A stretch of DNA of 58,560 bases from a virus. Taxonomy: Duplodnaviria > Caudoviricetes. Every line of letters starts with the position of its first letter. The first letter of the stretch is position 1. Under the pieces are notes generated by a model, which was not told the DNA's origin, made no database searches, and saw only the letters and a program-made list of their open reading frames with translations. A program made the translations under genes and the position numbers. Positions 918 through 58,096 of this stretch are shown piece by piece. Location: the IMG/VR virus record IMGVR_UViG_3300009170_000007, positions 1-58,560 of that record. The stretch is one strand, 5' to 3'.

Positions 918-1101
918 CCCAGCCGGAAATGATCGTTACCGGGAGATTACTAATCAACCCACCAACTCAGATGGTATATCTCTCAACCTTAGGTACTGTT
1001 CTATTTGTAAGAACCGTGTGCAAATCGCCGGCGGGAAATACATTAGAGGTACCTCCCGCCATAACCCTGGACGCTTTATCTGTAAGGATTGCAAATGTTA
1101 G
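904..1101 (+). CDS. Small zinc-finger protein
   Basis: CSIC...CKDC; similar to 774..917. Confidence 0.65.
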   Translation: MAMFDPAGNDRYREITNQPTNSDGISLNLRYCSICKNRVQIAGGKYIRGTSRHNPGRFICKDCKC

Positions 1102-1835
1102 TTGACCTGTGTTACGAAGTAGCCGCCATCCCCTCTTATCAATCCCTTTATACTGGGGTCAGGAAAGTGGTGCAGGGAATCACCCACTCCCTGGATACTC
1201 TACCTGAAGTCGACTTAGCTCAGCTAGGTTATCGGGGAGGAAAAATCCCTCAACTCATGCGTAACTACTTCAATCAGGAGGAAGTCAATGCAGCTAAAAC
1301 CAAGCTGGCCGCTCGCCGCAGTTCTCCGCACACATCCGTTGCTCTCAATACCCTGGGACAAAACAAAGACACTCGGTCTCAAGGGCACTGTATCCGTTCC
1401 ATCATTATTACTCAAACAACCAAGTGGACTGAAGTCGACATCATATACCGAAGCACGGAGCTCATTCAAAAGCACACCGCCGATTATGCCCTCTTACCAA
1501 TCATTCTTGAACAGCTTGGCCTGGCACACCCCCCCCGCATCTACCGGCTTTACTTCGCCAATTGCTTCCTTACCGCGCTCTTCGCTCCGATCCTCTTTCA
1601 GCATACCCACCCTATTGAGTTCTATGAACACCTAAAGAGGCACGATCCTCGGTACTACCGGACTTTCCTCAACGCCACGGCTAAGTTCTTCGAGCCAGAA
1701 TGCCGATACGCTTACAAGCATAGAGTAAAGATGTGGGAAATGACTCAGGCTAAACTGGACTGTCGTGCCTTAGCTAAATACTGCCAGGACAATGGCGCCT
1801 CTTTTCAGCCTGGGGAGTACCTCGATGAGTCTTAA
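1095..1835 (+). CDS. Divergent thymidylate-synthase-fold protein (paralog 1)
   Basis: GHC (catalytic Cys position) followed by YRSTELIQKHTAD, matching TS RSxD-x7-N/D spacing; AAGGA RBS before ATG 1095. Confidence 0.6.
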   Translation: MLVDLCYEVAAIPSYQSLYTGVRKVVQGITHSLDTLPEVDLAQLGYRGGKIPQLMRNYFNQEEVNAAKTKLAARRSSPHTSVALNTLGQNKDTRSQGHCIRSIIITQTTKWTEVDIIYRSTELIQKHTADYALLPIILEQLGLAHPPRIYRLYFANCFLTALFAPILFQHTHPIEFYEHLKRHDPRYYRTFLNATAKFFEPECRYAYKHRVKMWEMTQAKLDCRALAKYCQDNGASFQPGEYLDES

Positions 1836-2028
1836 GAATTTAGATGAAGTAGCCATCCTACAAAAGTACATCGTTGATCTTGATCAAGAGTTGTCAAGAC
1901 AGAAGGATGAAAATAGGATCCGGTTCATGTGTGCTGCCCTTTCCAGTACTCCGGCTAATGCCAACCCTGAATTAGCCGCTGACAGGGCTTATAATATCGC
2001 TATACACTGCATGAGAATAATTCAATGA
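1825..2028 (+). CDS. Hypothetical protein
   Basis: GGAG RBS; overlaps both neighbours. Confidence 0.6.
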   Translation: MSLKNLDEVAILQKYIVDLDQELSRQKDENRIRFMCAALSSTPANANPELAADRAYNIAIHCMRIIQ

Positions 2029-2831
2029 AATACCCCTCTTTCCAAGATCTACTGATGGATGTTCGGTTGGCCTTTTCCACAGCGCCCATTGTTAAGCCAA
2101 GTCATTGGCAGGGGACGCTGGTTCGTGGTAAGCCAGACATGGAGACTTATGAGATCCTCAACCACTCCTCTACCCTATGGTTACCGGATGAGGAACTAGA
2201 AGGCTATCGGAAAGACATTGAGCCTGACCTTCCATGGGCTGATGATCACTTTGAGGAAAGAGTCTGCGGCTATCCTCTCAACCCCGGTATTCAATGGTCC
2301 AAATGGAGATTAGGGAAAGGTGCCGACCAGTTCAGGGAGCCCAGTGGGAGGTTCAACCACAACTATATGGAGCGATTCTGGCCCCGCTACGCCCGTAAAG
2401 TTCCCGCGTCCGATAGACCACAACCCCAGTTTCTTTTAGGTTTGACTCCACATAGGGGAATCCTCTATGAGTATGGTGACTTGCATAGTGTAGTCGAGTT
2501 ACTAGCTCGGGAGCCCCTCACTCGTCAAGCCTTTCTACCTATATTCTTTCCAGAGGACACCGGAGCTGTCCATAAGGATCGAACTCCCTGTACCTTAGGC
2601 TACCATTTCATAGTCCGGAACGACCAGCTGCATGGCGTTTATTATCTTCGCTCCTGTGATGTTACTAATCACTGGCGAAATGACATCTACATGGCCATTC
2701 GTCTGATAATATGGATATTGGAACGGTTAAGGACCGTTCAACCCGAGGCCTGGGAAATGATTAGTCCCGGGACTCTTACAACTCACATTACCTCACTACA
2801 CTGCTTCCGTGGAGAATACTCAAAGCTTTGA
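2025..2831 (+). CDS. Thymidylate-synthase-family dCMP-modifying enzyme (hydroxymethylase/methylase-like)
   Basis: TRQA, RTPCT (catalytic Cys), YYLRSCDVTNHWRND, HITSLHCF; Asp at the E. coli TS Asn177 position as in T4 dCMP hydroxymethylase. Confidence 0.85.
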   Translation: MKYPSFQDLLMDVRLAFSTAPIVKPSHWQGTLVRGKPDMETYEILNHSSTLWLPDEELEGYRKDIEPDLPWADDHFEERVCGYPLNPGIQWSKWRLGKGADQFREPSGRFNHNYMERFWPRYARKVPASDRPQPQFLLGLTPHRGILYEYGDLHSVVELLAREPLTRQAFLPIFFPEDTGAVHKDRTPCTLGYHFIVRNDQLHGVYYLRSCDVTNHWRNDIYMAIRLIIWILERLRTVQPEAWEMISPGTLTTHITSLHCFRGEYSKL

Positions 2832-2892
2832 AGAACTCTGGGCTGAACTCAAATTTCAGCTCAATCTAACCGACCATGACCTGGAGAACCAA

Positions 2893-3792
2893 ATGAAACC
2901 TCTTGTTATCTACCACGCCAACTGTGCAGATGGATTCGGAGCCGCTTACGCTGCATGGACCCATCTGGGCGACCACGCGGATTATGCTCCCGCCAATTAC
3001 GGAGATTGTGTGATTAGTGCTGATAGCATCTTGATTGGCGAAGACACCTACGTAGTTACCGATCGTTGGGTATACATCTTGGACTACTCTTTGCCGGTTT
3101 CTGAGATGCATCTGCTCATGAAGATCTGTCCACGAGTAATCTGGCTAGACCATCATAAGACGGCCATCGAGAACTGGGTCGGGAAAGGGGCTCTGGATGA
3201 GTTTGTTAGCATCAATTCTTCTACCAACATCCGACTCAATAATGAGAAGTCTGGGTGTCGTCTAGCTTGGGAGTTCTTCCATACCGAGGAACCCCCCATG
3301 GGATTACGACACATCGAGGACTGGGATCTGTGGCGCTTCACGATGGCCGACACTAAGGCTTACTGTGAAGGACTACGTCAAGTACCCCAGAATTTCGAGG
3401 CCTGGGAAGAAGTCATGCATTCTCCTGATCTCCACTGGAAGACCATCCGGGTGGGGGAAACACTGCTGAAGTCTCAAGCTATCCGGATCAATAAGGTAGC
3501 TCACGGAAAGTTGAACGCCATTACCCTTCACGACAACGAGGGTACTCCTCACACTTTCAATAGCATCAACGTCTGCAATGACATCAGCGAAACGGGTAAT
3601 GCGATTTGCCTTCGTACCGGTTTGCCCAGTGCCACCTTCTTCGTCAATCTCAATGAAGTAGTCATCTCTCTTCGATCAGAGGGTGACTTCGACGTTTCCC
3701 GAATCGCCAAGCACTACGGGGGCGGTGGACACAAGAACGCAGCTGGATTCAAGATGAACACTACCATCTTTTTCAACACCATCTGGAAATGA
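2893..3792 (+). CDS. DHH/DHHA1 family phosphoesterase
   Basis: YHANCADG, ILDYS, LDHH, C-terminal GGGGHKNAAGF; GGAG RBS before ATG 2893. Confidence 0.9.
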   Translation: MKPLVIYHANCADGFGAAYAAWTHLGDHADYAPANYGDCVISADSILIGEDTYVVTDRWVYILDYSLPVSEMHLLMKICPRVIWLDHHKTAIENWVGKGALDEFVSINSSTNIRLNNEKSGCRLAWEFFHTEEPPMGLRHIEDWDLWRFTMADTKAYCEGLRQVPQNFEAWEEVMHSPDLHWKTIRVGETLLKSQAIRINKVAHGKLNAITLHDNEGTPHTFNSINVCNDISETGNAICLRTGLPSATFFVNLNEVVISLRSEGDFDVSRIAKHYGGGGHKNAAGFKMNTTIFFNTIWK

Positions 3793-3793
3793 C

Positions 3794-4072
3794 ATGAAAA
3801 CTATCTTCGTAACTCCCGACACCCTAAAGGATAGCCCTGAGCTGAACATGATTCGCAAAGCGTTAGCGGCTGAGCTCATCGAGCTTTCCCGACCTCTGGA
3901 ACTGGTGGTGGATGATGAGATCATGGATCATCTATTGATCGTTATCAGTAACTTATGCTCAGAAATACCCCAACCCAAAGAGATATACGACCGGCTCCTC
4001 GGCAAGGGATATAAGCACCCCGCGGGATGGGCACCTAACGAAACCCACCCCACCCCTGAGCAAGTTCAATGA
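3794..4072 (+). CDS. Hypothetical protein
   Basis: Fills operon gap; ATGA overlap with next gene. Confidence 0.65.
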   Translation: MKTIFVTPDTLKDSPELNMIRKALAAELIELSRPLELVVDDEIMDHLLIVISNLCSEIPQPKEIYDRLLGKGYKHPAGWAPNETHPTPEQVQ

Positions 4073-4545
4073 GAATTTCCCGGGACGAGCAAATGGCTTA
4101 CCATGCCCTCGTCACCTCTCTTCGCTCTACCTGTGGACGAAAGATGGTGGGGGCTATCATAGCCAGAGAGGGGAGAATCATATCCTCGGGCTATGCTGGG
4201 CCTCCCTCGGGATTCCCTCATTGCAACAGGGCCTGCACGGTGGCCTCAAGCGCCATGGGTGGATGTCAACGCACCATTCATGCCGAGCAGAACGCTATCG
4301 CTTACGCCGCTCGACATGGCATCTCTACCGATGGGGCAGTCTTGTATAGCACGTTGTCTCCCTGTACAAATTGTGCAAAGCTCCTGATCAATGCTGGGAT
4401 AAATGCTGTAAAATACATTGAACAGTACCGGGACGCCTCCGGAATTGAATTACTTACTTCAGCTGGAATACCATGTACAACAGTGAATGTCAACTCTGCA
4501 ATCTTCACAAATCTTCAGCAAGCATATGTATCCCAGCCACTTTAG
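4069..4545 (+). CDS. dCMP deaminase family Zn-dependent deaminase
   Basis: RSTC...VGAII, HAEQNA, SPCTNC motifs. Confidence 0.9.
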   Translation: MRISRDEQMAYHALVTSLRSTCGRKMVGAIIAREGRIISSGYAGPPSGFPHCNRACTVASSAMGGCQRTIHAEQNAIAYAARHGISTDGAVLYSTLSPCTNCAKLLINAGINAVKYIEQYRDASGIELLTSAGIPCTTVNVNSAIFTNLQQAYVSQPL

Positions 4546-6956
4546 CCGAAGAGTCTACTGATGTCTTAGTCATTGGCGATGCTCCAAGTGTCTCCGACGC
4601 CAATGCCGGTGCTTACCTCCAGGGGAAGCTGGGAGCTGAGCTCTATCGAGCGATGGATAAGATTGGCATCGAACACTTCGCTTACACTGGGGTAGTCAAG
4701 TGCAACCCGCCAGATGGCAAAAAGCCCGAGCCCGCTGAGGTCAAAGCCTGTTCCCATTACTTACAACAAGAGATAGCCCGGTTACGACCCAAGTTCGTTC
4801 TGGTGCTCGGGGCTACCGCAGTAAAGTCAGTCTGTAAAGAGGCCCGAATCACTGGTGTCGTAGGTAAGGTCATTGAGCGGGACGGCATCAAGTACATGCC
4901 TTGCTTCTCTCCGGCTTATGTTCTGCGTGATCCAGGGAAAGCTCCTGAGTTCAATCGGACTATGGCTAGGTTCAGGGATATGGTAAGAGGGAAGACCCAG
5001 ATTACCACCGAACTCAAAATCCGTATCATCGACCGATCTAACCTGGATGAGTTTCGAACCAAATTCCAGTTAGAGCGTGAGTTTGTATGTGACCTAGAAA
5101 CTTCTGGGCTGGACCATTTTCAACCAGCCTCATACATCAACTGTGTGGGGATGTACCTCCCTTTGGCAGGGGAAGCCTGGGTCTTACCGATACGCAAAGC
5201 TCCAACCCTTCCGGAGGAGACTCAACGTCGACTGCTTGAATGGATGTCCAGCTTAAGCATTCCGGTCATCAACCAAAACTGGAAATTCGACTCACTCTTC
5301 CTGTACCATAAGTTCGGAGTGTCATTCTACAACCGGGATGACACGATGCTTGCTCACTATAACCTGGACGAGAATACCCCGCATGGCCTGAAGGAGAATG
5401 CTAGGTTCCACCTGGATGCTCCTGACTATGATCTGACCACGGCGGAAAAGAAGGGCAATACCACGGCTACTAAGCTCTTCACGTATTGCGCCTGGGACTG
5501 CCACTACACCTATCAGCTCAGGAACCTGTATCGTAAGGACCTGATGAAGGACTTGGAAACCCGAAATATCTATCAGCATCTGACCATGCCCGCCTCCAGG
5601 ATGTACGAGGTTATCGAGCGGGAAGGCCACTTCGTCAACCTGGATAAGTTCCGTGCAACAGAACAGGAGCTATCCACTAAGCTCAAACTGGCAGAAGCTA
5701 AACTCAACCATTCTCTAGGACACCCCATCAATTGGAACTCTCCCGCTCAGGTTGGAAAGGCCCTTTACCATGATCTGGGATTGACTCCATCGGTCTTTAC
5801 GGACAAGGGAGCGGCCAGTACCGGGGAAGAAGCTCTATCCCATCTGGACCACCCCATCGTCAAACAACTGGTGGATTACCGGGAGAATCAGAAGTTTCTC
5901 TCCACCTACATCGAGGGATGGAAGGAATTCATGATCGGCCCCTATCTATACCTTGGGACTAAGCTCCATGGGACGGTCACTGGACGTTACTCTTCACGAC
6001 TCCACCAGGTACCACGTGACGGGACCATCCGCAACCTGATCGAAGCCCCTCCAGGATGGACCTTTGTACAAGGTGACCTCTCCCAAGCTGAACTGAGGGT
6101 CATCGCCATTGTTTCTCAAGACCCAGAACTGGTCAAATGCTATCGAGACGGTATTGATGTTCACTGGAGGACTACGGTTGGGGTTCTTCGGTTAGGGGGA
6201 AGTGAAGCTGATCTTCAAATGGCCAGAGAGACTGTAGCCAAGACGGGGTCAGGTATGGAGCCTCTCTCCATGTCAGAGGTATTAGACCAGTTAGAGGCTA
6301 TGGGACCGGATATGGCTGTGCAACTGGAAAAGCGTTGGAAGGAAAAGCGGAAGCAGTCCAAGGGAATTAACTTCGGGTATGTTTATGGGATGGGAGCTAA
6401 CAAGTTCTGTGAATATGCCAAGCTTAAATATGAGTGGGACGTAACCTTCTCTGAGTCTACCAATATACGCACAGGATTCTTTGGGACTTACCATTTTCTA
6501 CCGGCCTGGCACAAGCGTCAACGGGACCTAGTCAAAATCGATGGGTTCGTTAGGTCTCTATCGGGTAGAAAGCGTCGTCTACCGGGGATCTGGTCTCCAG
6601 ACCGTATGGTCTCTTCTGAAGCTGAGCGTCAAGCAATCAACTCTCCAGTCCAGGGGTTCATTGGTGACCTGAAGGTCATGGGGATGCTAGATATCTATGA
6701 GAAGATTCAACTTCTGAACCCAGACAAAATCCGGATGAAAGGTGAAGTACATGACTCTATCCTCATGTGGGTCAAAACCGAGTACTTGGATGAAATCTTA
6801 CCGCAGGTAAAAAGATGTATGGAGAAACCCACCTGGCTGGACCAATTTGACATAAAATTACCTGTTCCCATTGTAGCTGACATCGAAGTTGGCCCTTGGG
6901 GAGCTGGCAAACCTTGGCATGGAGAAAAGCAATGCTTAAACTGTTCGATGCAATAG
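4473..6956 (+). CDS. polA: Family A DNA polymerase with N-terminal family-4 UDG-like domain and 3'-5' exonuclease
   Basis: CQLC..GDAP..VVKCNPP..C (UDG-4); DLETSGL, NWKFD, YCAWD (Exo I-III); DLSQAELR, KGINFGYVYG, VHDS (motifs A-C). Confidence 0.95.
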   Translation: MYNSECQLCNLHKSSASICIPATLAEESTDVLVIGDAPSVSDANAGAYLQGKLGAELYRAMDKIGIEHFAYTGVVKCNPPDGKKPEPAEVKACSHYLQQEIARLRPKFVLVLGATAVKSVCKEARITGVVGKVIERDGIKYMPCFSPAYVLRDPGKAPEFNRTMARFRDMVRGKTQITTELKIRIIDRSNLDEFRTKFQLEREFVCDLETSGLDHFQPASYINCVGMYLPLAGEAWVLPIRKAPTLPEETQRRLLEWMSSLSIPVINQNWKFDSLFLYHKFGVSFYNRDDTMLAHYNLDENTPHGLKENARFHLDAPDYDLTTAEKKGNTTATKLFTYCAWDCHYTYQLRNLYRKDLMKDLETRNIYQHLTMPASRMYEVIEREGHFVNLDKFRATEQELSTKLKLAEAKLNHSLGHPINWNSPAQVGKALYHDLGLTPSVFTDKGAASTGEEALSHLDHPIVKQLVDYRENQKFLSTYIEGWKEFMIGPYLYLGTKLHGTVTGRYSSRLHQVPRDGTIRNLIEAPPGWTFVQGDLSQAELRVIAIVSQDPELVKCYRDGIDVHWRTTVGVLRLGGSEADLQMARETVAKTGSGMEPLSMSEVLDQLEAMGPDMAVQLEKRWKEKRKQSKGINFGYVYGMGANKFCEYAKLKYEWDVTFSESTNIRTGFFGTYHFLPAWHKRQRDLVKIDGFVRSLSGRKRRLPGIWSPDRMVSSEAERQAINSPVQGFIGDLKVMGMLDIYEKIQLLNPDKIRMKGEVHDSILMWVKTEYLDEILPQVKRCMEKPTWLDQFDIKLPVPIVADIEVGPWGAGKPWHGEKQCLNCSMQ

Positions 6957-8113
6957 CTCAACACAACTCACCAACCGATAAGGTAAGGCTCCTGAGGGAG
7001 TATCCTTACCAAGCGGACCTGAAGGAAGTTCTAAGATACGCTCTTGATCCCTTCATCACCTTCGGAATCACCTCGATGGTTCGCCCGACTCACTGGGCTC
7101 CCCAAAATGAGGACCAAGCGCATCAGCTACTGGACCTGATGTCACTCCGAAAACTTACCGGCAATGAGGCGAGGGTTAAGCTTGGGGAATGCATGAGGGA
7201 CGCCGAAGATTTCGAAGTGTACCTGAGGATCATTCAGAAAGACCTTTGTTGTGGGCTAGGCCCTAAGCTGGTGCTTCAAGCTTACCCCGGACTGATAAGG
7301 CAGTTTGACGTTATGCGAGCGGCTAAGTTCACCACTCTTCCAACTCGGGGAAACTTCGTCATCGAGCCCAAGTATGATGGTCTTCGATGCATCGCCATGG
7401 TTGATGAGGGAGCCGTCACTCTGCTCTCACGCAATGGGAAAGAGTTTACCTCTTCAGACCATCTGAAGGATTCCATTCTGAAGCTAGGCCGCAATGGAGT
7501 ATTCGACGGGGAACTTACCTCAGGGAACTTCAATTCCTCAGTCTCAGCGGTCAAACGGAAATCAGAACAGAATGACTCTACGGTTTACAACATCTTCGAT
7601 TACCTGGACCCGGATGAATGGAAAACCCCGGTCAATTCCTGGCGTCAGCGACGTTTTAAGCTCACAGAAATGTTTCGGGCAGGTACGCCATCAGGGTTGG
7701 TTTTGACGCCCGCGTACGACCTCTCCTCGGAAGCCGACGCCTTCAAATACTACAACCAGTTTCTCAACCTGGGCTATGAGGGTGGTATCGTGAAGAATGC
7801 CAGAGGTATTTATCGCTTCTCTCGGCATCGGGACTGGATGAAGTTGAAGGAAACCAACGATGCGGATCTTCGGGTAGAATCTCTGGTTGAAGGTGAAGGC
7901 AAGTATCGGGGTATGTTGGGAGCCGCCATCGTCTTCTACAACAACAAACGGGTCAGCGTAGGATCTGGATTCTCAGATGAGCAACGGGAGTTGTTCTGGC
8001 AAAACTCCAACTTGATCCTGAAGAAAGTCATTGAGATTCACTACCATCAGGTGACCCCAGAAGGTTCTCTGAGACATCCCCGGTTCATTAAAATCAGGGA
8101 AGACAAGTCCTGA
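6932..8113 (+). CDS. lig: ATP-dependent DNA ligase
   Basis: EPKYDG adenylation motif, FDGEL, YEGGIVK, WMKLK, VGSGF, SLRHPRF. Confidence 0.95.
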   Translation: MLKLFDAIAQHNSPTDKVRLLREYPYQADLKEVLRYALDPFITFGITSMVRPTHWAPQNEDQAHQLLDLMSLRKLTGNEARVKLGECMRDAEDFEVYLRIIQKDLCCGLGPKLVLQAYPGLIRQFDVMRAAKFTTLPTRGNFVIEPKYDGLRCIAMVDEGAVTLLSRNGKEFTSSDHLKDSILKLGRNGVFDGELTSGNFNSSVSAVKRKSEQNDSTVYNIFDYLDPDEWKTPVNSWRQRRFKLTEMFRAGTPSGLVLTPAYDLSSEADAFKYYNQFLNLGYEGGIVKNARGIYRFSRHRDWMKLKETNDADLRVESLVEGEGKYRGMLGAAIVFYNNKRVSVGSGFSDEQRELFWQNSNLILKKVIEIHYHQVTPEGSLRHPRFIKIREDKS

Positions 8114-8191: not shown

Positions 8192-8953
8192 ATGTCTGAC
8201 CTCATCCTCCCCTCCGCGGTTTATTCGGAGACCCATTCCCCCAAGCTGTCTGATCAATACGTTCATATCAAGACGGCAGATGTTCTTTCACGTTTTCAGG
8301 ACATGGGTTGGGAAGTTTCTTCGGCCAACGCGGCTAAGCACTCGAAGACCCCTCAGTTCGCACGCCACGCTATCCGTCTGCGTCATAAAGACTTTCCGAT
8401 GCTGGATACCGACAACGTGGTGCCTGAACTCATCGTACTCAACTCCCACAACGGTTCCTGGGCCTTGCGTATGGCTCTGGGCATGTTCCGTATGGTTTGC
8501 TCCAACGGCATGGTCGCCGGATCGCTCTGGGGTGGCATCGCTCTGAAGCACTACCGGATCAAGGACTTGGAAGAAAAGGTAGTCCAGGTCACCCATGAGA
8601 TCGATGGACTCAGCCACAGGCTGTCTGACAGCATCAAGCACTGGTCGGATGTTCAAGTCCCCCTGAAGGAACAACAGGAGTTTGCTCAGAAAGCTATCGC
8701 CATTCGGTGGGGCAATCGCAATCCTCTTACCGTTGAACAACTTCTGGAAGCACGTCGCCCGCAGGACATGGGAAGTGACCTCTGGAAGGTTTTCAACCGG
8801 GTACAAGAAAACCTGACCCAGGGTGGTATGATGGGCAGGTCGTCCAGTGGAGCTAACCTAAAGCTTCTCCCCGTCCGCAATGTCAAGCGGGACTTCAAGT
8901 TCAACTCCCAGCTCTGGGATCTGGCTAACGAATTCGCGAAGGAAGCAGCATGA
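8192..8953 (+). CDS. DUF932/DUF945-family protein
   Basis: LNSHNGS...GMFRMVCSNGMV, DLWKVFNRVQEN, NSQLW motifs. Confidence 0.85.
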   Translation: MSDLILPSAVYSETHSPKLSDQYVHIKTADVLSRFQDMGWEVSSANAAKHSKTPQFARHAIRLRHKDFPMLDTDNVVPELIVLNSHNGSWALRMALGMFRMVCSNGMVAGSLWGGIALKHYRIKDLEEKVVQVTHEIDGLSHRLSDSIKHWSDVQVPLKEQQEFAQKAIAIRWGNRNPLTVEQLLEARRPQDMGSDLWKVFNRVQENLTQGGMMGRSSSGANLKLLPVRNVKRDFKFNSQLWDLANEFAKEAA

Positions 8954-53777: not shown

Positions 53778-54178
53778 GTGGGTACATATACCCACCACCC
53801 CACTAGTACGCGGGTTACTGAACGGCGCCCACTAACCAATTTGGTGCCATCTGGGGGCGCTGTTTCCAGTGGTTCCGAGTGGGAATTATTCCACTATGAT
53901 TTTTCTCACCAGTATTGAATAGCTAAGTTACTGATATATATACTTATTTTATTATCTTGAAGAGAAAAAGAGAAAAATAGGTAAAATATACAAGTTTCTT
54001 GCTGTATTTTTAACCCTATGATGATTGGGTATAAGTTATACCCCGCGCGCCCCACTGGGGGGATATTAAAATAAAAAAAAATATGTCTCCCCATCTATCG
54101 CTTTATAATCAGTGACTTACGCTAGTCTGGTGAGAAAAAAATTTCTCCCCAAGATAACCTTTGACCCATCATTGGAAA

Positions 54179-54232
54179 AGTTATCCCCAACAGAAGAAAA
54201 GTTATCCCCAATCAAGACCGAGTTATCCCCAA
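54179..54232. repeat. Three 12-bp direct repeats at 21-bp period (iteron-like, candidate origin)
   Basis: AGTTATCCCCAA at 54179, 54200, 54221, next to an AT-rich tract (53920-54085) and the primase-helicase. Confidence 0.75.
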
Positions 54233-54419
54233 CCATTCTCGAACTTTTACCCATTTGGTATATTTTTCCCGCCCCCACTTTAGGACATTGGGATATCATC
54301 TCCCCTGGTATAATATACCCACACACCGCCACCCGGGAGAACGAAATGAACCACGCATATCCGGGTGATCGTCTACCTGACCGATCCAGCCCGACCCGAC
54401 CCGACTTCGAGGTAGAAGA

Positions 54420-56501
54420 CTAACTACGCATTCCCAGCTTCCGGCGTACCCTCCGGAGCCAGCCAGCGTCGAATACAGCGATCTCTTCCTTACCCCCACC
54501 CGAGGTGCGCTTCACCCTACGTATAGCCCCAGGTAGCAAGAGGTCCTCCAGCTGTCGCTTGAAGTGGAGTCTCCGCTCACACCGAGCTCGACCACTCCAA
54601 GACACATATTCATCATACAACTTATTCACCCCCACATGGCCTTCCTCCCAATCAGAACCCCAATCCAGGAGGAACTGCGTCACACCAGCCACACCCTGCA
54701 CCATCTGGGATTCACGGCCATCTGTCCACGGGATCACCCCTGGCTTCCACCCCGACAGATCCATTCGGCGCAGGTCATACAACATCCGACCAAGTCCACC
54801 ACCCTCCACGCTCATTTGAGCCACCACCCTATCCCAGTAATCATGGTCTCCCACTCGACCACCCAATACCTTGGTGATGAAATACCGTCGATCACCCGCA
54901 TCCACCGGAACCACCCAGTCATGATTAGAGCAGACCCCCAACCCGATGCAATTGGCGATCGAGAATGAATCCCGACCTTTCATCTCGACCATCTTAGTCT
55001 TCTCCGTTATGAGCGTCTTCAGGACACCCTCACGAACCTTGTCTCCACCCCATGTCGCCTCATCCGCCAACACCAAACACTTGTTAGCCAGATGATAGTT
55101 GAACTTGCCAGCCAAGTGATCACCCTGGGTGACGGTCATGTAATGATCACCAAACAACTCGCCCAGCAGACGGAAGACCAAAGATTTCCCACACCCTGGC
55201 ACACCCACTAGCACTATGGCCGAACCTGGCACCTCCCATGGCCTCTGTACCCTATGCGCCATCCACCCCAATAGGTAATCCCGAAGGTCCTCTCTCTGGT
55301 GGCAGACATTGATCCAGAGATGTTCAAGAAACAGCTCCCACCCAACCCCAAAATCCCCTTCCTCTTCTTCAACTGCCCAGCCGCGCCACAGGTTGTACTC
55401 CCCACCCCCACTCTCAAGCCCAGGCTTAAACACCACACCACCAGGAAACTCACGACGATCAGGGTGACCCAGCCAGAACTTGTCAGCCGTCACTTCCCGC
55501 TCACCCGAAGTCACTCTTCTATTCGCCATAAGCAACGAAAAATCCGAGCGGGTCAGGAATGCCACTCCACCTCCACGCTGCTCCTGCAATACGCAGACTG
55601 AGCCGCCGTTCCTAATCACAGCATACTCGGCATTAAGCTGCTCTATCAGATCGCCAGCACCTAACTCAAGCCACTCGACCAAGGATTCGAAGCCCCGAAG
55701 TCCAAAGCCCGAACCCCCACTAACGCATAGCTCACGAAGCCGCTTCAGCCCAGGGACTCGACCTCCGCTCTCTAACTCTTCACGAAGCCTCTCACTCTTG
55801 AGACGCTTCTCACCTTCTTCATCCCCTGCCTCAATCAGTATCCCACGCAGGAACGAGTCTACATCCTCATCTTCCCAGCCACTGCGAACCATTGAACCCA
55901 CTAGGCAGACGGACATCTCATCTCTAGCCCCGCCATGCCAATCTCGTAACAACAGCGAAGCCGCAGCTAACCAGCGGACGGACCTCTCAAGGTTCTCAGG
56001 ATCTATCCCAGAGATCTCTTCCTCACCCATCCACTCTATAGGTTCGCCGGTGTCAGGGTGCACGCTACCAGGTCCCATCGTCTGTCCCGAAGCACGCAGC
56101 TCCAGCAACACCGACTTCTCATTCCGCTTGTCCCAACACATACGCTTACTGCTCTTCACTCCAGACCGGTAGATCATGTGAGTTACGGCACCGCCTCGAC
56201 CAAACCGAGCAGTAGTAGGCAGATAGTACTTGGCCAGAACGCGGGACTCCTCAGAGTCCAGATCTATATCAACGATGTCCCCGAATCCCCTACCTAACCG
56301 GATGCCGAAGTTGCTATCCCCACCCCCATGGCTCTCACTCCATTCCCAGATCTTCTCTTGGGCTTCTTCCTCAGTGATCTTCTGCCAAGCCCCATATCCT
56401 GGAGACTTCCCATGTAGTAGGGGTATAACACTTTTGATGCCTCGGTCATATAACTTCTGGACCTTAGGGTGAGTCTTATGTAGCCGGGTTACCGCACTCA
56501 T
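54420..56501 (-). CDS. Prim-pol primase fused to SF3 (D5-like) helicase
   Basis: NFGIRLG, DIDLD, H.IY, PGSVHP.TG..; GVPGCGKS Walker A, LADE Walker B, SNH, DRRY. Confidence 0.9.
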   Translation of the reverse strand: MSAVTRLHKTHPKVQKLYDRGIKSVIPLLHGKSPGYGAWQKITEEEAQEKIWEWSESHGGGDSNFGIRLGRGFGDIVDIDLDSEESRVLAKYYLPTTARFGRGGAVTHMIYRSGVKSSKRMCWDKRNEKSVLLELRASGQTMGPGSVHPDTGEPIEWMGEEEISGIDPENLERSVRWLAAASLLLRDWHGGARDEMSVCLVGSMVRSGWEDEDVDSFLRGILIEAGDEEGEKRLKSERLREELESGGRVPGLKRLRELCVSGGSGFGLRGFESLVEWLELGAGDLIEQLNAEYAVIRNGGSVCVLQEQRGGGVAFLTRSDFSLLMANRRVTSGEREVTADKFWLGHPDRREFPGGVVFKPGLESGGGEYNLWRGWAVEEEEGDFGVGWELFLEHLWINVCHQREDLRDYLLGWMAHRVQRPWEVPGSAIVLVGVPGCGKSLVFRLLGELFGDHYMTVTQGDHLAGKFNYHLANKCLVLADEATWGGDKVREGVLKTLITEKTKMVEMKGRDSFSIANCIGLGVCSNHDWVVPVDAGDRRYFITKVLGGRVGDHDYWDRVVAQMSVEGGGLGRMLYDLRRMDLSGWKPGVIPWTDGRESQMVQGVAGVTQFLLDWGSDWEEGHVGVNKLYDEYVSWSGRARCERRLHFKRQLEDLLLPGAIRRVKRTSGGGKEEIAVFDAGWLRRVRRKLGMRS

Positions 56502-56665
56502 GCTGCCTCCCTCTCAGCCAACTTCTCAGAGAGCTTCTTTACATCCTTGTCAAATAGCACCCAGCCGAACCCTACCTTCTGACCCAGTCCCTCGCGACGC
56601 ACCCACTTATATAGCCGCTTCTCAGGGATGCCCAGTCGCTTACTCACTTCGCCAATAGAATACAT
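56498..56665 (-). CDS. MerR/excisionase-like HTH protein (55 aa, not in ORF track)
   Basis: My translation MYSIGEVSKRLGIPEKRLYKWVRREGLGQKVGFGWVLFDKDVKKLSEKLAEREAA; AGGAGG RBS; ATGA overlap with primase. Confidence 0.8.
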   Translation of the reverse strand: MYSIGEVSKRLGIPEKRLYKWVRREGLGQKVGFGWVLFDKDVKKLSEKLAEREAA

Positions 56666-56770
56666 TTTTCCTCCTAGAAAGTTTACTGCTAGATACCACT
56701 CGGGTTATAATACCACTTTACCCCCGAGCTAGAAACATTCGCTCCCACTAAAATTTTCCCAGGTAACCCC

Positions 56771-57262
56771 ATGATCATAGTTGAAGGTCCAGACAATACC
56801 GGAAAGACCACACTTATCCAACAGCTGCAGGATATTTTTCATCTGCCATCACTTAGGGCGGGCTTCCATCCACAGAACCCTAAAGACATCCATCAATATC
56901 ACTACTGGGCGGTCACCTCCCCACGTCAGTTGATTTTAGACCGACACCCCGCCGTCTCGGACTTCATCTATACACCCATCCTGAGACCCACCGAACCTGA
57001 GCTCTCCTCATTAGACCTCATCATTCGGATGTTGGACCGTCACTACACTATTTTCGCCCTCCCTCCATTCAACCAGGTTGAAAAGAGTTATGACGAACGA
57101 CCTCAACTTAAGGGGACGAAAGAAAACCTCCGACGCATTTATCAAGCCTATGAGAAACTGTTGAATGACTTTGAACCCAACTTCCTGTATGACTATACCA
57201 AACCCAATGCCTTTACGGCTCTCACCACCCACCTAACCCACTACCTGGCGCGCTCATCATGA
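56771..57262 (+). CDS. Nucleoside monophosphate kinase (thymidylate-kinase-like)
   Basis: IIVEGPDNTGKTT P-loop, ILDRHP..SD..Y, YDYT. Confidence 0.85.
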   Translation: MIIVEGPDNTGKTTLIQQLQDIFHLPSLRAGFHPQNPKDIHQYHYWAVTSPRQLILDRHPAVSDFIYTPILRPTEPELSSLDLIIRMLDRHYTIFALPPFNQVEKSYDERPQLKGTKENLRRIYQAYEKLLNDFEPNFLYDYTKPNAFTALTTHLTHYLARSS

Positions 57263-57813
57263 TCCAAGAAACCCTTCCCCGAATCTTCGAATTTCAGTCT
57301 CAGCTCATCGAGACACTCCGTCCCATCGAAATTGAACTGGGATATACCCCACCCCAAATTCCGTTAGATTTCACTCTCAGAGCCCACCAGGACTGGTTCC
57401 GGCTCATGTCATGGTACCTGACGGAAGAGATCATCGAGGCGAAAAGTGCTAACCACACCCTGCTTCCCGAGGAAATGGCTGATGCCCTTCACTTCGCAGT
57501 GGAACTGTGTATCCTCGCCGACATCCCACCTCATCAGGTGTTAGAACGTCTGGCCCTGGAGCAATTCGAGCCTTACTCCACCCCGCAAACCCTGGACGAC
57601 GTCATCTTCCATCTGGGACTAGCTAACAACCTGCTCAAGGCTAAGCACTGGAAGAAAAACCCCAAGCCCACACCACTGAGCAACTTCCGGTATCATCTGG
57701 CTTCTTCCTTGATCTCTTTACTTCAGTGCTTCTTCCAGGCTCAGATTGACCCCGCCGAAGAGTACTTCAAGAAGCATCAAATAAATAATGACAGAGCCCA
57801 ATCCGGGTACTAA
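57259..57813 (+). CDS. All-alpha dNTP pyrophosphatase (dimeric dUTPase/dCTPase-like)
   Basis: TEEIIEA...EEMADALHF, K.KHWK, EYFKKHQIN..RA.SGY. Confidence 0.8.
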   Translation: MIQETLPRIFEFQSQLIETLRPIEIELGYTPPQIPLDFTLRAHQDWFRLMSWYLTEEIIEAKSANHTLLPEEMADALHFAVELCILADIPPHQVLERLALEQFEPYSTPQTLDDVIFHLGLANNLLKAKHWKKNPKPTPLSNFRYHLASSLISLLQCFFQAQIDPAEEYFKKHQINNDRAQSGY

Positions 57814-57859
57814 TCCCTTATAATGGGTATGTCACTAACCAAAACCGGAGTCCGATATC

Positions 57860-58096
57860 ATGCCCTGCATCCAGTACCTCACCGCCAAAGTTAAGCATCA
57901 CGACCAAGAGTTCAATGCGGTTATCTCCGAACACTCCAGCAACACCTTCATCTTCGGATTCAGTCAACTCCCGGTCACCACTTCGACTCACATGAGCTTC
58001 GCTTCCCTGAAGGCGATCGCCGACATGTTGAACCTCGCCGTCGCTGTTCACGAGCAGCGCATCGCCGCCGACATGGAGCATCAAGACAATGACTAA
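57860..58096 (+). CDS. Hypothetical protein
   Basis: GGAG RBS downstream of the 57817 promoter element. Confidence 0.65.
   Translation: MPCIQYLTAKVKHHDQEFNAVISEHSSNTFIFGFSQLPVTTSTHMSFASLKAIADMLNLAVAVHEQRIAADMEHQDND

Follow-up and report, generated by a model that had tools for sequence, protein, structure and literature searches.

In a virus record from IMG/VR (IMGVR_UViG_3300009170_000007; 58,560 bases, about 92% complete according to CheckV, hereafter the window) the gene at 1095..1835 on the plus strand was found to encode a divergent protein of the thymidylate synthase (TS) fold, which is accompanied across phages by a second, non-canonical TS homologue encoded at 2025..2831 on the same strand. 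The two open reading frames are referred to as ORF1 (paralogue A) and ORF2 (paralogue B). By its predicted structure ORF1 is a member of the TS fold, and structure decided the assignment where sequence methods were silent. We consider the chances to be about evenly balanced that ORF1 represents an expressed, catalytically competent and previously unnamed TS-fold subfamily, which acts after ORF2 on a modified cytosine nucleotide. The TS fold itself is known. For the ORF1 subfamily, its rebuilt C5 pocket and the obligate pairing with ORF2, full-text literature searches outside subscription journals and supplements returned no description, and they gave none of paired TS-fold genes or a TS heterodimer from phages either.

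The ORF1 gene codes for 246 amino acids, from the ATG at 1095 to the stop codon at 1833-1835. A Shine-Dalgarno-like AAGGA is located 8 nucleotides 5' of the ATG, and the start of the gene shares 7 nucleotides with the preceding small open reading frame (904-1101). An alternative in-frame start, TTG at 1089, was considered and found unsupported; close homologues begin with MLVDL.

An AlphaFold2 model of ORF1, calculated with the family alignment, reached a mean predicted local distance difference test score (pLDDT) of 95.5 and a predicted template modelling score (pTM) of 0.90. Searching the PDB with this model using Foldseek resulted in 83 matches at E<=1e-3, and all of those listed were thymidylate synthases, the phage T4 deoxycytidine monophosphate (dCMP) hydroxymethylase or the dCMP hydroxylase of phage HY126. 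The TS-type alpha/beta fold that the initial annotation had suggested for ORF1 was thereby confirmed at the level of the model. Among the viral structures of BFVD three uncharacterised relatives ranked first, with a homologue from Pseudomonas phage PMBT14 at the top (template modelling score 0.82), followed by viral TS and gp42 proteins. The top feature cluster for ORF1 in the ESM Atlas consisted to 100% of PF00303 (score 0.90, 182 shared features). The structural match covers mostly residues 1 to about 175 of the model; alignments mostly end at 172-175 and some reach 211-226. Residues 161-232 are modelled as helices and lie mostly outside the match.

At the sequence level no family was found for ORF1 in Pfam or NCBIfam, and its sole PHROG match was phrog_34294, a family of unknown function. 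A phmmer search of the PDB returned chance matches only, and a BLASTP comparison of ORF1 with ORF2 was not significant (E 0.33). The sequence-only routes failed, and the link between ORF1 and TS was made only through structure and through the bridging third paralogues described below.

An exhaustive, profile-free homologue search with ORF1 yielded 204 representative clusters (50% identity) at E<=1e-3, 107 of them at E<=1e-10. The query and 128 of the 150 listed clusters were aligned (n=129, to which the counts below refer); the other 22, obviously shorter fragments or proteins of far greater length, were left out. Members are 19-59% identical to the query. Five residues, Lys50, Tyr58, Cys99, Arg119 and Asp130, are invariant in all 129 sequences, followed by Lys126 (122), Tyr118 (121), Thr121 (114), Lys91 (110), Arg74 (101) and Arg23 (100). 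The position of Glu122 holds Glu in 125 and Asp in 4 sequences, never Asn; position 120 is Ser or Thr in 100, and position 96 is Gln in 73 and Met in 33. Lys50 and Tyr58 form an invariant pair in the helix 50-58 (1242..1268, plus strand). Cys99 (codon 1389..1391, plus strand), the presumed catalytic nucleophile at the position of TS Cys146, is part of a GHC motif directly before the strand 100-108 of the model. The second active-site segment, 1449..1484 on the plus strand, comprises Arg119-Ser120-Thr121-Glu122, Lys126 and Asp130, at the positions of TS R166-S167-x-D169, G173 and N177. The stretch YRSTELIQKHTAD contains Arg119 (1449-1451), Ser120, Glu122 (1458-1460) and Asp130 (1482-1484, GAT); in the model Tyr-Arg-Ser-Thr-Glu closes the strand 112-122, and Lys126 and Asp130 are part of the next helix (126-139). 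The GHC cysteine, the Arg-Ser pair, the cytosine-type Asp and the Glu in place of the Asp of the RSxD motif are thus all present as the initial annotation had read them. It had also noted the lack of the C-terminal H..S.H.Y motif, and this was borne out: the strand HITSLHCF of ORF2 corresponds to YFANCFLT in ORF1. Strand 147-160 of ORF1 (PRIYRLYFANCFLT) lacks a conserved His or Tyr pair where TS has its His207/Tyr209 motif. The folate-closing C-terminus of TS is likewise absent from ORF1.

Along the predicted secondary structure of ORF1, Cys, Arg and Asp follow one another as in TS. Arg and Asp are spaced by 11 residues in ORF1, in ORF2 (Arg209 to Asp220) and in the cytidine monophosphate (CMP) hydroxymethylase MilA, and the same spacing separates Arg166 from Asn177 in Escherichia coli TS. 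Of the 127 open frames of at least 100 amino acids in the window, exactly two, ORF1 and ORF2, match the pattern C-x15-25-R-[ST]-x-[DE]-x7-D, while 200 residue shuffles gave on average 0.18 matches, with a maximum of 2. The pattern was matched once more, by a short frame (41896) that runs opposite to a gene of the minus strand.

For mapping of the pocket, 12 residues of E. coli TS were taken from section 28 of PMC13326640. By spacing, Leu143 would correspond to Gln/Met at position 96 of ORF1, His147 to Met/Ile100, Gln165 to Tyr118, Asp169 to Glu122, Gly173 to Lys126 and Asn177 to Asp130. A canonical ThyA specific for deoxyuridine monophosphate (dUMP) has Asn at 177, where all 129 sequences of the ORF1 family have Asp130, 11 residues after Arg119. 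Because Cys, Arg and Asp, together with Lys50, Tyr58 and Lys126, are kept across 19-59% identity, we interpret the conservation pattern as an active site. The pattern is that of a live site which would bind a 5'-phosphorylated cytosine-type pyrimidine and combine the thiol mechanism of TS with another partner chemistry at C5. The view of ORF1 as a pseudo-enzyme, decayed from a copy of ORF2, was rejected because of the invariant catalytic residues, and the conserved residues point to an active enzyme instead.

In three IMG/VR phages the ORF2-type gene is followed downstream by a third paralogue of the TS fold (L020:6524-7291, L026:6052-6894 and L027:6696-7274). These proteins are divergent members of the ORF1 family, as a profile made from them matched that family with an hhalign probability of 99.1%. 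Against the ORF2 family the same profile gave a weak match (E 0.0064, probability 5.9%), in which Cys, Arg, Glu/Asp and Asp were in register, and a BLASTP comparison of one third paralogue with an ORF2-type protein gave E 0.005 in a small database. The residue mapping of ORF1 is supported because the third-paralogue profile bridges the two families.

The gene pair was found repeatedly in other phages. A tblastn search of 50,697 phage records with ORF1 matched 27 records, with Clostridium, Serratia, Pseudomonas, Stutzerimonas, Brevundimonas and Yersinia as hosts, in addition to two uncultured phages. In all six annotated phage records that were inspected the ORF1 homologue was located directly upstream of a TS homologue. 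The latter was annotated as 'thymidylate synthase' in five of the six; in Lebethron it is a 'hypothetical protein' that matches the ORF2 family. Two of the records label the ORF1 homologue itself 'pyrimidine hmase synthase'. Using local hidden Markov models (HMMs), an ORF2-family gene was detected downstream on the same strand, within 0-2.3 kb, in all 36 ORF1 carriers (35 loci, some of them near-duplicates, and the window). Scores were 344-453 bits, and 116 bits in the Clostridium phage. Distances were determined for 74 non-redundant pairs, 70 of them measurable, with ATG starts only. The stop of ORF1 overlaps the start of ORF2 in 44 of the 70, mostly by 4 nucleotides; the remaining gaps measure 1-30 nucleotides in 7 pairs, 31-300 in 4 and more than 300, up to 2.3 kb, in 15. 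The two adjacent paralogues, which the initial annotation had tied to each other, therefore do co-occur across phages, with an ORF2-type gene next downstream in 36/36 carriers. In the window the gap is 189 nucleotides, and a 78-residue open reading frame (1792..2028, plus strand) that matched no family at the thresholds used is wedged between the paralogues, overlapping the end of ORF1 and the start of ORF2. Because ORF1 and ORF2 overlap directly in many relatives, this spacer is regarded as lineage-specific.

A census in the reverse direction was based on the best 80 of 373 ORF2-type loci in IMG/VR, of which 68 had at least 1,500 nucleotides upstream. An ORF1-family gene was present upstream in 58 of these 68. 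In the other 10 no ORF1 relative was detected within 4 kb on either side, using searches with filters off, BLAST with the divergent paralogues and the motif. The ORF2 signature was the same in loci with and without ORF1. ORF1 appears to depend on ORF2, since ORF1 is always accompanied by ORF2 and ORF2 is sometimes found without ORF1. The comparative data lean towards action in sequence, with ORF1 dependent on ORF2, over a reading in which ORF2 needs ORF1 as an obligate partner. A functional tie of ORF1 to ORF2 (2025-2831) is supported by these data.

ORF2-type genes were found in 103 phage records at E<=1e-20, mostly phages of Gordonia and Mycobacterium. In mycobacteriophage Muddy (gp47, L116:2925-3818) and Gordonia phage Survivors (gp44, L117:3093-4001) the position of ORF1 is occupied by a hypothetical protein of about 300 amino acids. 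Both proteins matched the ORF1 profile weakly (16.9 and 12.9 bits, respectively, in a six-sequence database), over the N-terminal half up to the Cys, and both keep the Cys, the Arg and an Asp at +11. They may represent a remote version of the ORF1-ORF2 pair, and we regard this sequence resemblance as a lead. A full pair was found in a Desulfofustis phage, and the cassette is present in phages of several bacterial phyla. A search with the single ORF1 protein in species-representative cellular genomes yielded no relative.

ORF2 encodes 268 amino acids, with Asp220 at the position of Asn177. It matched PF00303 below the cut-off of that family and phrog_160 with 3e-24. The ORF2-family profile matched MilA best, then TS, the dCMP 5-hydroxylase AfhB of phage HY126 and the T4 dCMP hydroxymethylase. 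Glu78, Arg186, Cys189, Arg209, His216, Asp220 and His259 are invariant in 111 ORF2-type proteins, and Asp212 is kept in 110 of them. Arg186 corresponds to Leu143 of TS by HMM alignment, and His216 to Gly173 by spacing. Residues of the Glu58, Tyr94, Asp169 and His207 type are retained and the C-terminal approx. 48 residues of ThyA are missing. ORF2 fits neither the acidic residue at 143 of the T4 hydroxymethylase signature nor the Asn at 169 of the 5-hydroxy-dCMP (5hodCMP) synthase signature. The initial annotation had contrasted the chemistry of the two paralogues with that of known homodimeric dCMP hydroxymethylases. ORF2 is not one of these: it is itself a non-canonical subfamily, with Arg at 143 and His at 173.

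For the nucleotide substrate, the order of the steps, the chemistry and the modification of DNA we propose the following scheme, which uses the pre-replicative base replacement logic of the T-even type (PMC8989533, introduction; PMC13326640, section 24). A pyrophosphohydrolase would return the canonical deoxynucleoside triphosphate (dNTP) to the monophosphate (dNMP), and ORF2 would add a one-carbon group to dCMP in a hydroxymethylase-like reaction. ORF2 is read as a one-carbon enzyme because of the logic of the module and because it keeps the four residue types named above and, like hydroxymethylases, lacks the tail by which TS transfers hydride. ORF1 would then bind the cytosine-type pyrimidine 5'-mononucleotide, its Cys99 attacking C6, and carry out a second, different C5 reaction on the product of ORF2. 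The most plausible chemistry would be that addition of the Cys re-forms an exocyclic methylene, which is passed to a new nucleophile. Lys126, Glu122 and Tyr118 may assist the coupling of the new group, and the C-terminal helical extension (161-232), which replaces the folate-closing C-terminus, may bind the second substrate. A kinase would re-phosphorylate the modified dNMP, dCMP deaminase would balance the pools and the phage polymerase would incorporate the product. TS-fold enzymes can perform C5 chemistry that does not involve folate, and the residues at 143, 169 and 177 predict the type of product, according to sections 24 and 28 of PMC13326640. In its most specific form, a folate-independent two-enzyme pathway, possibly a channelling heterodimer, that makes an undescribed 5-substituted deoxycytidine at the mononucleotide level, we regard the proposal as speculative and rather unlikely to hold in full.

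Several observations weigh against the proposal that ORF1 is a second-step enzyme of cytosine modification. PF00303 was matched by none of the 129 family members at E<=0.1, the family profile built from them found no TS chain in the PDB, only chance matches, and hhalign gave a probability of 2.5% between the ORF1 and ORF2 families. The mapping of ORF1 residues onto TS is inferred from spacing, from the order of secondary structure elements and from a weak bridging alignment, and cytosine specificity was assigned from the single residue Asp130. The genes might co-occur so strictly in part because the replication module is conserved as a unit, without a specific partnership, and which step comes first is a matter of conjecture. 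The paper on the carrier Yersinia phage P744 does not contain the words pyrimidine, thymidylate, restriction or modif. To our knowledge, Muddy and related actinophages have been sequenced routinely without reports of modification. A dCMP deaminase and a polymerase fused to a uracil-DNA glycosylase (UDG), both encoded near the pair, would also fit a pathway to thymine or uracil; both paralogues, however, carry the cytosine-type Asp.

The asymmetric heterodimer that the initial annotation had raised, in which ORF1 and ORF2 pack through back-to-back beta-sheets and each donates an Arg to the site of the other, either as one composite enzyme or as a channelled two-site enzyme, is in our judgement possible but doubtful. 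It is compatible with action in two steps, because it is a claim on quaternary structure. The adjacency in 36/36 carriers, the start-stop overlap in 44/70 pairs and the shared TS fold speak for such a complex. Dimers of the TS family use Arg126'/Arg127' of the partner (textbook knowledge; PMC8989533, citing Carreras & Santi 1995), and Arg74 of ORF1 (101/129) and the invariant Arg167 of ORF2 are located immediately N-terminal to the strand preceding the Cys, the site of this Arg pair in TS. The 10 of 68 ORF2-type loci without ORF1 within 4 kb, in which the ORF2 signature is unchanged, argue against it, and so do the third paralogue after ORF2 in three phages and the 15 pairs that are separated by more than 300 nucleotides. 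Each protein also keeps a full set of Cys, Arg and Asp, so that neither resembles a pseudo-subunit. As weak evidence, no significant ORF1-ORF2 fusion was found among 816 candidates of longer proteins. A prediction of the complex scored 0.00, below the mark and without controls, and speaks neither for nor against binding.

That ORF1 works on its own on unmodified dCMP, for example by flavin-dependent C5 hydroxylation like AfhB and the 5hodCMP synthases, is an explanation we find unlikely. It would mean two parallel TS-fold activities, as in T4, which has both td and gp42. AfhB is the nearest structure to ORF1 and the C-terminus of TS is absent from ORF1; such enzymes are also widespread and diverse (PMC13326640, sections 24 and 28). 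The position of Asp169, however, is never the diagnostic Asn, that of Leu143 is Gln/Met and not Glu, and the phrogs scan of the other large open reading frames of the window revealed no arabinosyl- or glycosyltransferase and no sugar-activation gene. Nor would it explain why ORF1 is paired directly, and often with overlap, with ORF2. A non-catalytic ORF1, serving as nucleotide-binding regulator or scaffold of a phage dNTP-synthesis complex, or as a decoy that poisons the host ThyA dimer, seems very improbable to us. The loss of the folate-side residues and of the H..Y motif of TS would agree with it, as would the lack of a sequence-level match to any characterised enzyme family. Yet Cys, Arg and Asp are invariant over 129 sequences, as are Lys50 and Tyr58, with Lys126 kept in 122, and the family is present in phages of hosts from several phyla with differing ThyA.

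In the window the minus strand carries the tailed-phage structural block and the plus strand the replication and nucleotide block, according to scans of the open reading frames. All features that follow are on the plus strand. A DHH/DHHA1 phosphoesterase (2809..3792; PF02272 4.8e-7, phrog_4771 1e-63) overlaps the end of ORF2 by 23 nucleotides. It may act as a nucleotidase in the pathway; none of the six annotated relatives inspected has it. It is followed by the dCMP deaminase (4069..4545; PF00383 3.5e-20, phrog_174 1.3e-42) and by a DNA polymerase A (4473..6956; PF03167, PF01612, PF00476; phrog_17) with an N-terminal UDG-superfamily domain (PF03167, E 4.8e-21) and a 3'-5' exonuclease domain, whose gene overlaps the end of the deaminase gene by 73 nucleotides. 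A paper on SP15-like UDG-PolA proteins (PMC13697223) concerns much longer polymerases, and one on AXL3 (PMC7504290) describes TS in another context; neither served as evidence here. Further downstream are an ATP-dependent DNA ligase (6896..8113; PF01068, PF14743; phrog_114) and a DUF932 protein (8192-8953; PF06067, E 4.7e-30), the latter between the ligase and a PD-(D/E)XK nuclease. The small open reading frames before ORF1, at 774-917 and 904-1101, contain CxxC pairs.

A thymidylate-kinase-like dNMP kinase (56771..57262) was recognised by a weak match (phrog_761 4.3e-15; TIGR00041 0.0024, far below cut-off), and next to it an all-alpha nucleoside triphosphate pyrophosphohydrolase of the dUTPase_2-like type (57259..57813; phrog_12184 9.6e-10; PF08761 4.7e-4, just below cut-off). 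These two genes (56771-57813) sit at the far end of the record, with several small open reading frames between them and ORF1. In relatives the ORF1 homologue is preceded by a gene of the thymidylate kinase type and by one for a dUTPase or hydrolase, and downstream of the pair follow dCMP deaminase (in most), PolA, a PD-(D/E)XK/Cas4 nuclease and Sak4. The nucleotide module of the window probably runs across the ends of the record (56771-57813 and 1-1100), by circular permutation or a terminal cut. The GC skew is strongly negative (-0.34 and -0.29) over 54001-58000 and within +/-0.14 elsewhere in the window. TS with Asp177, pyrophosphohydrolase of the PRA-PH type, dCMP deaminase and ligase domains were reported in PMC8670742 to be enriched on cytosine-modified metavirome contigs, and the window encodes all these types: Asp177-type TS, pyrophosphohydrolase, dCMP deaminase and ligase.

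In phages, nearly all known modifications of pyrimidines made before replication begin with an enzyme of the TS fold, and one subfamily of these enzymes was recently shown to perform an unexpected flavin-dependent hydroxylation (PMC13326640, citing He et al. on AfhB). ORF1 defines another subfamily, of at least 204 clusters at 50% identity, to which Pfam, NCBIfam and PHROGs assign no function. The strict association of ORF1 with another unusual TS homologue points to a testable and probably new nucleotide-modification cassette. Among its carriers are cultured phages, such as Pseudomonas phage PMBT14, Serratia phage Serbin and Brevundimonas phage Polewnik, as well as relatives of a therapeutically used phage. 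If the proposal is correct, an unrecognised DNA base would exist in a widespread group of tailed phages, those of Pseudomonas, Serratia, Yersinia, Brevundimonas and Clostridium and, by way of the remote homologues, in Gordonia phages and mycobacteriophage Muddy. The identity of the product would bear on the evasion of restriction and CRISPR, on phage sequencing and engineering and on the limits of repurposing the TS fold.

Among the known systems, ThyA (PF00303) has the core topology of sheet and helices in common with ORF1, with Cys, Arg and the residue that reads the base at the same spacing. The T4 dCMP hydroxymethylase gp42 and MilA are similar to ORF1 in the TS fold, the catalytic Cys, the Arg-Ser pair and the Asp at the position of Asn177. 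The T4-type signature, however, consists of Asp/Glu at 143, Asp169 and Asp at 177 (PMC13326640, section 24), and ORF1, by equivalences derived from spacing, has Gln/Met at 143 and Glu at 169, so that only the Asp at 177 fits. Clade 2 aGPT-Pplase, as described in PMC8989533, resembles the chemistry proposed for ORF1, by analogy only, in the addition of a thiolate at C6, the exocyclic C5 methylene and the new nucleophile. It differs from ORF1 in its helix-hairpin-helix fold and in acting post-replicatively on DNA, on 5-phosphomethyl-deoxyuridine. The AfhB-type dCMP 5-hydroxylases or 5hodCMP synthases (HY126 AfhB, 9iqu/9iqc; RB69 gp48; DLP3 gp80) are about 12% identical to ORF1. Their signature is Asn at 169, Asp at 177 and Glu at 143 (PMC13326640, section 28), of which only the Asp is matched, by Asp130; ORF1 has Glu and not Asn at 169, and Gln/Met and not Glu at 143. 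ORF1 further differs from them in Lys126 (122/129) at the position of Gly173, in approx. 70 extra C-terminal helical residues and in the absence of sugar-transfer genes from its surroundings in the phrogs scan of the large open reading frames of the window.

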